IMG/VR virus record: IMGVR_UViG_3300025789_000018
Length of the DNA: 64,000 nt
Reading direction: 5' to 3' (one strand)
Origin: a virus
Lineage: Duplodnaviria; Caudoviricetes
Shown: piece after piece, positions 20,848 through 26,148 of the stretch
Numbering within the stretch: the first letter of the stretch is position 1
Layout: every line of letters starts with the position of its first letter
Translations under genes and position numbers: made by a program
Notes under the pieces: model-generated
Database searches by the model: none
The model's input: only the letters and a program-made list of their open reading frames with translations
What the model was told of the DNA's origin: nothing

Positions 20848-20931
20848 TGGCTCCTGCGGTAGGACTCGAACCTACAATGCGTGAGCGGTTGATTAACAGT
20901 CAACTGGGTCTACCAATTCCCCCACACAGGA
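20848..20931 (-). tRNA. tRNA-Asn(GUU) with an atypically long variable region
   Basis: Acceptor TCCTGTG/CGCAGGA, G73, anticodon arm GTTGA-CTGTTAA-TCAAC, 12-nt variable region, CCA. Confidence 0.85.
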
Positions 20932-20936
20932 ACAAA

Positions 20937-21566
20937 CTAAATACCTCTTTTTTTACCATTCTGAGAAACAAACTCTTCAAGCAAATCAGAACATCTAGTT
21001 ACAAAGTTTGATTTTGTATACTTATAGTCAACTATTGTGACGAACTTTTCCCATCCATATTCACAATAAATCTTATAATATTCTCTATAAACTTCTATAT
21101 TTTTTAATCTGCGAAGTTCTAGTTTTGATTGAGATTTGATCTTTTGTTTCTTAACTCTACCTTTATTCCAACCAGTTGGTACCACAGAATCGATTGTTAT
21201 TTTCTTGGAAATAACACCATCATTTATCCACATGGTTCCAAACTGAGAGTTGCCCGAGCCAGATTGAGATTCTGACATTACTTTACTAAAACTTCTTCTT
21301 ATCCAACCATATAACTTATTTGAAGAACGATTGGGTATCATCATCTGAGCGGCCATAATCAACTTAAAGTTGTTAGGATATATTTTCACCAAAAGTTGAT
21401 GTGCCACATAGTGTTCTTCTGGGGTTAGATATACCAGATTTGATTTATCATCAGAACCACCCATACAACGAGGAACAATATGATGTTCTTCATAATATGT
21501 TTGGTCATCTCTGAATCTATTAAGACCCCGATCAATGAGTGATTTGTATATCTTCTGGTAATCCAT
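20937..21566 (-). mobile_element. free-standing HNH homing endonuclease (MobE-like)
   Basis: MDYQKIY...YYEEHHIVPRCMGGSDD..NLV.LTPEEHYVAH.LL.KIYP. Confidence 0.88.
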
Positions 21567-21576
21567 GAGCAATCCT

Positions 21577-23807: not shown

Positions 23808-24035
23808 TTATGCAATCAACTGTTCAATCTTGGCCTTAACAGACTTAGCACGATCAATATGACCAACCTTAACAATACGCTTCTCAGCTAGTTTCGTTTC
23901 GGTTTCAACAATCTTGACGACATTGTTTTCTTCACGAGTAACAAAATCATCTAGTTCTTGTGATACACGATTAAATGTATTCAAAATAGTATGAATAGAC
24001 TTGATACCAAACAAAGCCAAAATACGCTCAACCAT
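23808..24035 (-). CDS. hypothetical helical protein
   Basis: 75-aa ORF with SD AGGA between tRNA genes. Confidence 0.55.
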   Translation of the reverse strand: MVERILALFGIKSIHTILNTFNRVSQELDDFVTREENNVVKIVETETKLAEKRIVKVGHIDRAKSVKAKIEQLIA

Positions 24036-24082
24036 AATATATGTCTTTCCTGTAAGAGCTAATTACACAATTATTTATATAG

Positions 24083-24159
24083 TGGTGGACCCTCTGGGAC
24101 TCGAACCCAGCACCTTCCGATTAAAAGTCGGACGCTCTAACCAACTGAGCTAAGGGTCC
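24083..24159 (-). tRNA. tRNA-Lys(UUU)
   Basis: Cloverleaf, CT-TTT-AA, CCA. Confidence 0.95.
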
Positions 24160-24178
24160 ATATTCACTTAACATTGAC

Positions 24179-24207
24179 AGTATACCAAAACAAAGGTGCA
24201 AAGTCAA
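24179..24207 (-). promoter_or_regulatory. sigma70-type promoter within the tRNA cluster
   Basis: TTGACT-17-TATACT. Confidence 0.75.
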
Positions 24208-24217
24208 GCTAAAAATT

Positions 24218-24294
24218 TGGCGCACCCAATAGGACTCGAACCTATAACCTTCGGCTTCGTAGGCCGACGCTCTATCCAGTTGAGCTATGAGTGC
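24218..24294 (-). tRNA. tRNA-Arg(ACG)
   Basis: Cloverleaf, CT-ACG-AA, CCA. Confidence 0.95.
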
Positions 24295-24309
24295 ATAAAA
24301 TATTATTTA

Positions 24310-24386
24310 TGGTGTGACGTGAGAGATTCGAACTCTCTATCTTCGGCTCCACAAGCCGACGCATCATCCATGTCTGCCTACGTCAC
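24310..24386 (-). tRNA. tRNA-His(GUG), A73 discriminator
   Basis: TCGGC-TTGTGGA-GCCGA; 3' end ACGTCAC-A-CCA. Confidence 0.9.
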
Positions 24387-24390
24387 CACA

Positions 24391-24482
24391 TGGCGGAAGA
24401 TCAGGGAGTCGAACCCACGGAACCTATTTCTAGGCTCAACACCTTAGCAGGGTGCCGATTTCAACCACTCATCCAACTCACC
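24391..24482 (-). tRNA. tRNA-Ser(GCU), chimeric, with mispaired acceptor and T stems
   Basis: GCACC-CTGCTAA-GGTGT anticodon arm and long variable arm; 5' GGTGAGT pairs poorly with 3' ATCTTCC; 5' part overlaps the last codons of the upstream endonuclease. Confidence 0.7.
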
Positions 24483-25064
24483 AATTTCTTTTTTTCTTAA
24501 CACCTTTAATGTTAACTCTTTAGGGAATTGATCCCATTTTGCTTTATCCATTTCCGTCTCATAACCTTTTATTTCAATATAAGAATTCCAATCTTCGACA
24601 AAAAAGTCTGGAAGATATGTAGAAGGCTTACCATCAGGTTTAATGTATGGAAATCTTTTCTTATTTCTTAACCAAGTTAATTTATTGGCATCTGCATATT
24701 TACAAAATATCAATTCCCATGAACCATCAACTTTAATTTCACCAGCAATAGGAGAAGAATATGGATATTTTTTGCATCTTCCAGCAACACATTCCCAACC
24801 ATTTGCATATCGTTCATTAATTTTATCAGACAATTTTTTCTTAGATTTATCAGAATGTTTTCTGCCTAAGAAGGTGCCTGGTTTGTTTTTTGTTCCTACG
24901 TCATAATGTAGAGTTTTGCCTTTATTCCATGGGGTAGGATTTTCAGCTTTATATCGTTTGAATGGAGATTCTTGTTTTTGAGGATTTTCTTTGCACATTC
25001 GTTCATGATTGCACAAAGAATTTTTATTTTTACATTCTTTTTGACAGTAACAGCACAATAACAT
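24444..25064 (-). mobile_element. free-standing PD-(D/E)XK endonuclease with zinc finger and NUMOD3-type motif, inserted in the tRNA-Ser locus
   Basis: CCYC...LCNHERMC zinc finger; FLGRKHS..SKKKLS; GSWE..F; YLPDFF...YIEIKGY; TATAAATA late promoter at 25084-25091. Confidence 0.8.
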
Positions 25065-25097
25065 AAGGGCACCTCCTTGTTATTATTTATAATAAAT

Positions 25098-25130
25098 CAG
25101 TGCGCTGCATTACCGTCCTGCCCATCTTCC
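25098..25130 (-). pseudogene. orphan 5' half of a tRNA-Ser
   Basis: GGAAGAT-GG-GCA-GGACGGTAA-TGC-A-GCGCA-CTG; GGAAGAT is the perfect partner of ATCTTCC at the 3' end of 24391-24482. Confidence 0.75.
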
Positions 25131-25140
25131 AACAGTTTAT

Positions 25141-25314
25141 TTAGTATGGAATAAACTCATCAGTAGGTAAACCAACGGGCGAATCAACAGAATAGATACC
25201 ACCGAATGACATGTTACCAACAGCATCCCATGCCTCTTCAACAGTGTTACACTCTGTTCTTTCAGTACCCTTGAAGGAATGTGTCACCACAACGTAGTTT
25301 GGCTTCTTATCCAT
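25141..25314 (-). CDS. hypothetical protein
   Basis: 57 aa from MDKKP. Confidence 0.5.
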   Translation of the reverse strand: MDKKPNYVVVTHSFKGTERTECNTVEEAWDAVGNMSFGGIYSVDSPVGLPTDEFIPY

Positions 25315-25931
25315 TAGTTGGGTCCACTTCCATTGCCCCAAGCCTTACCAACAGGTGCATAACCAGTATCAGCCCAACGCTTCTGAATACGTGCTTCCAC
25401 TTCTTCAAAAGACAGAGGCTCATAGTTGGTGTGTTCAACCGAGACGCACAGATACCTCGGATCAGGTTCTTGCATATGTCGAAGTTCTGGAACTTGCATC
25501 CGTCGCATAACTTCATTTGCATGAAGATGTCCATGAACGTTGACGCGGAAACGTTCTGACACACAATCGGGGTGAAGTGGAATATGGCTCAAAATGAACT
25601 GGTCCACAAACACCCGAACACCATACAGGCTATCAAACCCAGCATCACGATAATCTTGATCCTTGAAGATATCATGGTTGCCGCGAACCAGACGCTTCTT
25701 GCCGTTCAGGCGCTTGACATGATGCAGAGACTTGCGATTGATAACAACATCGCCCAGATGATACACCGTGTCATTAGGACCGACCTTAGCGTTCCAACGC
25801 TCTACCATCGTTTCGTCCATTTCCTCAGTGGAAGTGAACGGGCGAAGAGGCTCGCCGTTGGGCAGCTTGAACTTTTCCCAAGAGTTGGTGTGACCAAAGT
25901 GAGTGTCAGAGATTACAAAACGATTAGACAT
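25314..25931 (-). CDS. calcineurin-like metallophosphoesterase
   Basis: ISDTHFGH, YHLGDV, RGNHD, LSHIP, NVHGHLH; real start MSNRF. Confidence 0.92.
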   Translation of the reverse strand: MSNRFVISDTHFGHTNSWEKFKLPNGEPLRPFTSTEEMDETMVERWNAKVGPNDTVYHLGDVVINRKSLHHVKRLNGKKRLVRGNHDIFKDQDYRDAGFDSLYGVRVFVDQFILSHIPLHPDCVSERFRVNVHGHLHANEVMRRMQVPELRHMQEPDPRYLCVSVEHTNYEPLSFEEVEARIQKRWADTGYAPVGKAWGNGSGPN

Positions 25932-26057: not shown

Positions 26058-26148
26058 TGGTGCGCCCGTCGAGACTTGAACTCGAACCAACCCCTAATCT
26101 GGGCATCCGGGATATAAATCCGGTCGTGCTACCTTACACTACAAGCGC
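26058..26148 (-). tRNA. atypical tRNA, best read as Ile(UAU), long variable arm
   Basis: Acceptor GCGCTTG/CGGGCGC, CCGG-A-TTTATAT-C-CCGG anticodon arm, about 21-nt variable arm, TCGAG-TTCAAGT-CTCGA, CCA. Confidence 0.65.

Follow-up and report, generated by a model that had tools for sequence, protein, structure and literature searches.

A candidate homing-endonuclease cassette with a damaged spare tRNA inside a phage tRNA-Ser(GCT) gene

The DNA analyzed here, referred to below as the window, is a stretch of 64,000 nt from the IMG/VR virus record IMGVR_UViG_3300025789_000018 (Duplodnaviria; Caudoviricetes). Its minus strand carries a cluster of 20 tRNA genes, as determined by ARAGORN over the whole 64-kb window. 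Within this cluster, a resident tRNA-Ser(GCT) gene is interrupted by an open reading frame (ORF) for an endonuclease, and the ORF runs directly into a second, divergent tRNA-Ser(GCT). We interpret the insert as a free-standing homing-endonuclease cassette inside a phage tRNA-Ser(GCT) gene whose spare tRNA has been damaged, and we give this interpretation a probability of roughly 0.75. The mobile unit consists of a late promoter, a ribosome-binding site, the gene of a zinc-knuckle and PD-(D/E)XK nuclease, and the divergent tRNA-Ser(GCT), which is called B-type below to distinguish it from the resident A-type. The tRNA now encoded in the window is a chimera of a B-type 5′ part and the resident A-type 3′ end. 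A preliminary description of this DNA had proposed that an endonuclease splits a tRNA-Ser locus, and the resident tRNA-Ser(GCT) gene was indeed found to be invaded by the cassette.

The interrupted locus and its chimeric tRNA

The chimeric tRNA-Ser(GCT) is 92 nt long and occupies 24391–24482 (minus strand, as for all features of the window given below). It was called by ARAGORN and scored 29.4 bits against the Rfam tRNA model, the threshold of which is 29. Alignment with the B-type genes of the contigs L206, L207, and L209 assigned tRNA positions 1–66 (24417–24482) to the cassette-borne part. Positions 67–74 (24409–24416) form the switch interval, GGGTTCGA, eight T-arm bases common to A-type and B-type; B-type-diagnostic bases lie 5′ of this interval, and A-type-diagnostic bases lie 3′ of it. 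Positions 75–92 (24391–24408) are the resident A-type 3′ end, as determined by the alignment and by identity with the contigs L152 and L162, and comprise the end of the T-loop, the 3′ T-stem strand, the 3′ acceptor strand, G73, and CCA. The first 39 nt of the tRNA are at the same time the last 13 codons and the stop codon of the endonuclease ORF, the TAA being the last three bases of the anticodon loop.

The two parts of the chimera pair poorly. The acceptor stem reads G-C, G-C, U.U, G-U, A.C, G-U, and U-A, that is, three Watson-Crick pairs, two G-U pairs, and two mismatches, and three of five positions are paired in the T stem (GTGGG/CCCTG). Hence, neither the seven-pair acceptor stem nor the five-pair T stem of a functional tRNA-Ser is present. 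A long variable arm (7 bp), the GCU anticodon in a 7-nt loop, G73, and an encoded CCA are kept. Compared with Rfam scores of 53 to 74 bits for the cluster neighbors, and of 59.1 (L215), 56.8 (L218), 54.7 (L217), and 59.4 bits (an endonuclease-free B-type gene) for the intact homologues, the chimera lies ∼25 to 30 bits under every intact relative and so does not reach the score typical of its homologues. Neither its lowest-energy fold nor its centroid fold was a cloverleaf, whereas the three relatives from L215, L217, and L218 folded as cloverleaves. The chimera is probably non-functional or weak, and we infer that tRNA function has been lost in the window.

The sequence observations that the preliminary description had made on this tRNA were all confirmed. 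The final codons of the ORF do double as a different tRNA-Ser 5′ half, as seen from the 39-nt overlap and from the B-type genes found elsewhere; the poor fit of this incoming half is evident from the pairs counted above; and the proposed chimera with a switch in the T-loop agrees with a boundary inside the eight shared T-arm bases. Its word "rebuilt" is too strong, given 29.4 bits versus 55 to 59 bits in relatives and a lowest-energy fold that is not a cloverleaf.

The 5′ end of the resident gene was found on the other side of the ORF, as an orphan fragment of 33 nt at 25098–25130 that was recognized by its sequence, allele match, and pairing. It covers positions 1 to ∼34 of an A-type tRNA-Ser(GCT), including the acceptor strand, the 3-bp D arm, and the 5′ anticodon-stem strand, and breaks after CTG in the anticodon loop, as had been described. 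Its 18-nt D-arm motif occurred once in the window versus 0 copies expected, and 28 nt of the fragment recurred at 100% identity in the intact tRNA-Ser(GCT) of the phage contig L152; it is therefore not a chance similarity. L152 also matched the window in the T-loop, the 3′ T-stem strand, and the acceptor strand. L152 and L162 both agree with the window in the acceptor strand of the orphan as well as in the end of the T-loop, the 3′ T-stem strand, and the 3′ acceptor strand, and differ from it in the discriminator base. Between the orphan 5′ strand (25124–25130) and the 3′ acceptor strand (24395–24401) all seven pairs are Watson-Crick, in accordance with the perfect match noted earlier. The whole locus had no megablast match among 50,697 phage records, and distant blastn hits reflected generic tRNA-Ser similarity only. 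The next gene of the cluster, tRNA-His(GTG) at 24310–24386 (ARAGORN; Rfam, 52.7 bits), is the right limit of the disturbed region.

The left end of the cassette is marked by TATAAATA (25084–25091), a T4-type late promoter motif that occurred 14 times in the window versus 5 expected; the same motif or a one-base variant (TATATATA, CATAAATA) stands at the equivalent place in six related Ser cassettes. A Shine-Dalgarno sequence, AAGGAGG (25072–25078), was read 7 nt before the ATG of the ORF, which spans 24444–25064, encodes 206 amino acids, and was identified as a free-standing endonuclease gene by homology, motif, and model. The ORF lies outside any intron or intein, having its own promoter motif and ribosome-binding site and no Rfam group I or group II intron match at E values up to 1.

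The predicted protein has a C-C-H-C zinc knuckle at its N terminus and a PD-(D/E)XK domain at its C terminus, along with a weak NUMOD3-like match. In an alignment of 30 homologues, C4, C7, H20, and C24 were invariant, fitting a zinc knuckle, and E117, D153 (in PDF), and K166 (in E-I-K-G) were invariant or nearly so, with E or D two positions before the K. Pfam returned weak matches only (TnsA-like N, E 0.11; NUMOD3; DUF7487), and PHROGs assigned the protein to phrog_15137 "endonuclease" (1.7e-14); GIY-YIG families were absent from both the Pfam and the PHROG results. An AF2 model with a mean predicted local distance difference test score (pLDDT) of 86.4 was compared with known structures by VIA-align, and the best match was TnsA (Z 9.0; root mean square deviation, 3.1 Å; 129 residues aligned). 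The next ones were VRR_NUC (6.3), the catalytic domain of the homing endonuclease I-Bth0305I (6.3), and Vsr (6.0), with Bax1 also present; all matches fell on residues 97–204, and the top rows were mostly PD-(D/E)XK-fold nucleases. Foldseek against the PDB gave none at E 0.001 or better, the best being TnsA at 0.01, and a PDB sequence search gave no match at E up to 10; the fold assignment is thus based on VIA-align and the conserved motif. As modeled, the endonuclease has a restriction-endonuclease-like PD-(D/E)XK fold that is closest to TnsA. Because all conserved residues are kept, the window endonuclease is probably active. The order of a late promoter followed by a PD-(D/E)XK endonuclease, as first described, is thereby upheld by TATAAATA, the catalytic motif, and the modeled fold.

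Intact alleles and related cassettes

When viral contigs were searched with the orphan D-arm motif, 125 matches were obtained, ∼117 of which were uninterrupted A-type tRNA-Ser(GCT) genes. This number compares with seven interrupted genes, all broken at the same anticodon-loop junction. A match in L204 was rejected as a chance one inside a protein gene. B-type tRNA-Ser genes without an endonuclease were found in L206 to L209. Apart from the variable arm, the B-type part of the window closely resembles the genes of L206, L207, and L209 and shares their first 20 nt exactly; in L209, the tRNA gene has a homologue of the window's phosphoesterase gene upstream of it. Since the B-type gene exists free of the endonuclease, it is a pre-existing tRNA that dictates how the ORF tail reads, and not the reverse. 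Comparison with endonuclease-free relatives, which had been proposed earlier, could thus be made with both intact A-type (L152 and L150) and B-type (L206 to L209) genes. The closest relatives by the phosphoesterase neighbor (L001 to L017) were mostly without downstream tRNA genes, and no endonuclease-free version of exactly this neighborhood was found. In L022 (6610–6696), L167, and L182, an intact tRNA-Ser has an A-type D arm but a B-type anticodon stem (GCACC/GGTGT); these tRNAs may be mosaics that arose from partial gene conversion between A-type and B-type.

Several related Ser cassettes are more complete than that of the window. L075/L215 carries an orphan, a promoter, an ORF 81% identical to that of the window, and a B-type tRNA-Ser that is complete and whose acceptor stem is matched. 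A resident 3′ remnant, beginning at TTCGA, directly follows the CCA of its spare, and the acceptor strand of this remnant pairs with the cassette's own orphan. L150 is the exact intact counterpart of both L215 remnants. The pattern of a CCA followed by a T-loop remnant gave 17 matches, of which 16 were unrelated coding sequence and one was the L075 contig. L217 and L218/L189 have an orphan, an ORF, and a complete matched tRNA, with no 3′ remnant. The earlier view that the cassette brings a replacement 5′ half only was therefore revised, as L215, L217, and L218 carry a whole matched B-type tRNA-Ser.

Other spares have decayed. L219 retains both remnants, and its cassette tRNA (2040–2200; Rfam, 36 bits) is broken by an internal deletion that removed the 3′ strand of the D stem and the 5′ strand of the anticodon stem; a resident 3′ remnant that begins within the variable arm comes next. 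In L216 and L269 (2091–2177 in both), the tRNA-Ser(GCT) has a matched acceptor stem and an atypical D arm (G8, 4- to 6-bp stem), falls under the Rfam tRNA threshold, and scores best against the tRNA-Sec model (34 bits). The broken spare of L219 and the low-scoring tRNAs of L216 and L269 demonstrate that spare decay is not unique to the window. Judged against these relatives, the window holds a derived, damaged form of the cassette.

In all Ser cassettes the left junction is identical, the anticodon loop being followed by the promoter. The flanks vary and include tRNA-Glu, tRNA-Val, and protein genes; the orphans show six acceptor sequences, and five of the seven orphans are 100% identical over 27 to 33 nt to a living intact allele. 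Because the left junction is constant, the flanks and orphan acceptors are varied, and orphans are identical to intact alleles, repeated site-specific invasion of A-type genes fits better than one old, vertically inherited insertion.

An alignment-based search of viral and metagenome contigs extended this layout to 49 non-redundant homologous loci. At ∼30 of them, the 3′ end of the ORF overlaps a tRNA gene on the same strand, and the identities of the overlapped tRNAs are Ser-GCT, Ser-GGA, Phe, Met, Val, Thr, Ile, Lys, and Pro. Fourteen loci have an orphan 5′ fragment in the upstream 130 nt with the identity of the overlapped tRNA (Ser, Phe, Met, Pro, or Ile). These upstream orphans start at tRNA position 1 to 8 and end at ∼25 to 35, mostly in or beside the anticodon loop, usually with a TATAAATA-like motif thereafter. 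Remnants of the 3′ end are also kept in L233 (Met) and L220 (Ser).

Homologues at 28% identity were found in cultured phages. In the Kuttervirus PhaxI (L212; NC_019452, 1437–2300), an annotated "endonuclease" and a tRNA-Met gene share 10 nt, and the initial 27 nt of the resident tRNA-Met stand upstream of the endonuclease gene; homology to relatives returns at the last 6 nt of that resident tRNA gene. In Salmonella phage S117 (L213; MH370370, 439–514), the resident tRNA-Met is intact and the endonuclease is absent. Presence/absence polymorphism at one defined site was therefore found both for A-type tRNA-Ser genes and for the tRNA-Met genes of PhaxI and S117. Most relatives in a spread sample from a 265-record search were without the gene. 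Another homologue, that of Dhakavirus IME341, lies in the T4 "Trna" region. Near the site of the PhaxI tRNA-Met, Cba120 is annotated with an HNH gene instead.

Further observations concern the tRNA cluster of the window and that of a related phage. An HNH-type ORF of 211 amino acids (20937–21572) ends 5 nt before an 84-nt tRNA-Asn(GTT) (20848–20931); this ORF and the unusually long tRNA may represent a second endonuclease-plus-tRNA pairing in the cluster. The tRNA-Ile(TAT) at 26058–26148 is 91 nt long versus the usual 74 to 77 nt and may hold an insert. Beside the tRNA cluster of a related phage contig, ARAGORN called a permuted transfer-messenger RNA with the tag ANDNNAYEGLALAA (L044, 7368–8029).

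Proposed history of the locus and competing explanations

The anatomy of the locus, the chimera, the presence/absence polymorphism, and the family-wide layout are established, and so is the nuclease fold; on this ground we infer nuclease activity, a cut site, and homing. The targets of the nuclease would be A-type tRNA-Ser genes free of the endonuclease, with the cut at the anticodon or close to it, around position 34/35; repair from cassette-bearing genomes would then copy in the nuclease gene together with the linked spare tRNA. The resident 5′ part, and sometimes the 3′ end, would remain as scars. The zero distance between nuclease gene and spare would keep drive and rescue together, and the late promoter would give late expression, as in other T4 free-standing endonucleases. 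In the window, the spare would have lost its own 3′ T-stem and acceptor strands and been joined, within the eight shared bases, to the resident 3′ end. Rescue would thus have failed in this lineage, the nuclease gene staying intact and the phage presumably relying on the host tRNA-Ser(GCU).

Several points weigh against this history. For every member of the family, activity, cut site, and homing are predictions. The B-type anticodon loop is the same as that of the A-type, yet the B-type would be immune. The persistence of the chimera in several samples indicates that it is not strongly harmful, and G1-C72, G2-C71, G73, a long variable arm, and a good anticodon arm are intact, so that some function is possible. 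Moreover, all metagenome runs containing the locus are from freshwater and from 2017, maybe from one campaign, and are thus not fully independent.

The chimera itself may have arisen by either of two routes. Double-strand-break repair may have been resolved within the eight shared T-arm bases, making GGGTTCGA a co-conversion boundary as first proposed, and such a resolution gives the same product as a deletion. The deletion route supposes a later loss of 23 nt between two TTCGA direct repeats in an L215-like ancestor, in which case the locus is no snapshot of homing. We take the deletion to be a serious contender, though a shade under an even chance. L215 has the required precursor layout, with a remnant from TTCGA right after the CCA of the spare, and deletion from TTCGA to TTCGA would recreate the sequence architecture of the window. 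However, no L215-like variant of the window's own lineage was found, and the window remnants belong to a different A-type allele than those of L215, so that at least one separate invasion or conversion is needed anyway.

It is also conceivable, albeit unlikely, that the locus has the same history and the chimera still works, with RNase P, CCA handling, and seryl-tRNA synthetase tolerating imperfect stems; "rebuilt" would then be the right word for the locus. In the chimera, G1-C72, G2-C71, G73, the variable arm with its 7 bp, and the anticodon arm are intact, and in E. coli tRNA-Ser these are the main recognition elements. It was called by ARAGORN, reached the Rfam threshold, if barely, and the allele was unchanged in four runs. 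Nevertheless, its acceptor stem has two internal mismatches and two G-U pairs, two of the five T-stem pairs are lost, its score and folds set it apart from the intact relatives, and the broken spare of L219 indicates that decay of a spare is tolerated.

A split tRNA had been offered as an alternative in the preliminary description and is now very improbable. In a long transcript, the orphan 5′ half would pair with the 3′ part over the intervening ORF, and the two would be cut and joined to give an A-type tRNA-Ser. The complementarity of all seven acceptor positions speaks for this reading. The anticodon stem formed by the two pieces, however, would read G-U, C-G, G-U, C-G, and A-G, that is, two Watson-Crick and two G-U pairs out of five; the T stem would still have three of five pairs; and the product would be B-type from the anticodon to the T stem. 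In addition, the orphans of L216, L217, and L218 have no 3′ partner, the A-type middle is absent in L215, and no guide or bulge-helix-bulge element was seen at the locus. The poor anticodon stem, the T-stem defect, and the partnerless orphans of three relatives led us to abandon this alternative.

Misassembly at the T-loop, a concern raised when the locus was first described, is more improbable still. In this explanation, an A-type strain and a cassette strain were merged where the T loop is conserved. The window does come from a metagenome, and loose contig ends show that A-type and B-type tRNA-Ser genes occur together in the same samples. But the shared stretch is only 8 nt, below any assembler word length, and separately assembled Logan contigs from the runs X5 (24200–24885), X6 (24200–24750), and X7 (24200–24476) cross the T-arm junction with 0 differences. 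Other contigs from the same three runs span the orphan region, also with 0 differences. The exact 30-nt chimeric junction had 0 matches in IMG/VR. One X6 contig has a loose end running from the orphan sequence into an intact anticodon loop; therefore, a possible target allele co-occurs in the same water.

A group I intron with an endonuclease in the anticodon loop, as in cyanobacterial tRNA-fMet, would account for the insertion point but can practically be dismissed, since Rfam at E up to 1 over 23900–25700 returned tRNAs and chance matches only, with no group I intron or other RNA family, and since what comes after the ORF is not a 3′ exon but another complete 5′ half, from an allele other than that of the orphan.

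Known systems and significance

The cassette was compared with systems that share parts of its layout, the review of intronless homing in PMC3984707 covering the general process. SegB of phage T4 is a free-standing GIY-YIG endonuclease encoded in a tRNA cluster that promotes intronless homing together with neighboring tRNA genes (PMC2330249; also PMC13096335); its site includes a conserved T-psi-C stem-loop motif, and it is inherited at near 100% in crosses (PMC2330249). The likeness lies in a free-standing endonuclease gene within the tRNA cluster of a T4-like phage. The window enzyme differs in combining a zinc knuckle with a TnsA-like PD-(D/E)XK domain. The segB gene does not overlap a tRNA, and neither orphan halves nor a bundled spare of the same identity is described for it. 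Furthermore, activity and homing were demonstrated for SegB, whereas the window enzyme is known here from its sequence and model.

The nearest published parallel is that of the fungal mitochondrial mORFs, which form gene hybrids in atp6 of Allomyces macrogynus and in atp6, atp9, cox2, and nad3 of Glomus (PMC3630166). There, too, an ORF inserts in a gene and brings a foreign, more divergent copy, and the native part is left as an unused duplicate. The hosts are protein genes, however, with the foreign C-terminal end placed ahead of the ORF, and other enzyme families are involved. In the window, the ORF sits in a phage tRNA gene and is followed and overlapped by the spare, which is a whole gene. 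Prophages and genomic islands with integrases also replace tRNA genes and leave tRNA gene fragments in the genomes of prokaryotes (PMC9897764). They resemble the cassette in inserting in a tRNA gene, carrying a copy of the displaced part, and leaving a partial gene as a scar, and they differ in being large elements with site-specific recombinases and a near-identical 3′ replacement. The window, by comparison, has a 0.7-kb nuclease cassette, a 5′ orphan, and a divergent spare allele.

An endonuclease encoded by an intron in a tRNA anticodon loop is similar in targeting the anticodon region and in having its gene in the anticodon loop. The self-splicing intron restores that tRNA at the RNA level, whereas rescue in the cassette would take place at the DNA level through a second tRNA gene, with no intron. 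The intron-encoded enzyme is presumably also a PD-(D/E)XK nuclease, and neither the sequence search nor the structural comparison matched it to the window protein. In the T4-like phage Aeh1, nrdA is split by the free-standing endonuclease gene mobE into nrdA-a and nrdA-b, both of which are used as subunits. Aeh1 mobE resembles the cassette as a selfish insert in a gene of essential function, in the same phage group and under late-promoter control. In Aeh1, however, the halves stay in use, whereas the old halves in the window are scars and a separate full copy is supplied.

A literature search found no description of a phage endonuclease gene that is physically linked to a spare for the very tRNA gene it would disrupt. 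The shuffling of phage genes by free-standing homing endonucleases and the action of SegB in the T4 tRNA cluster were known; what the cassette would add is a bundled rescue tRNA with a nuclease of the PD-(D/E)XK family.

For the family as a whole, we consider, with the odds evenly balanced, that these zinc-knuckle and PD-(D/E)XK nucleases form a gene drive of the "cut and rescue" kind, both widespread and active, that acts on phage tRNA genes. Such a drive would cut the anticodon region of tRNAs of at least five, and perhaps nine, identities, would always be joined to a divergent, immune spare of the same identity, and would drive allele turnover across T4-like, Kuttervirus, and other phages. 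Being always joined to the spare, drive and rescue would be inseparable by recombination. That spare alleles also serve as cargo escaping host anticodon or variable-loop nucleases is less likely. If the drive exists, the window shows it continuing with a failed rescue.

The cassette layout accounts for orphan tRNA halves and "pseudo-tRNAs" in phage genomes and for the annotated overlaps of endonuclease and tRNA genes in PhaxI and other cultured phages. Since Kuttervirus phages that carry the element and others that lack it are both in culture, homing and the recognition of tRNA genes are directly testable. In the window, the spare tRNA has been lost or damaged while the nuclease gene is intact; the phage tRNA-Ser would therefore be dispensable at least for a time, and drives of this kind can erode phage tRNA sets.

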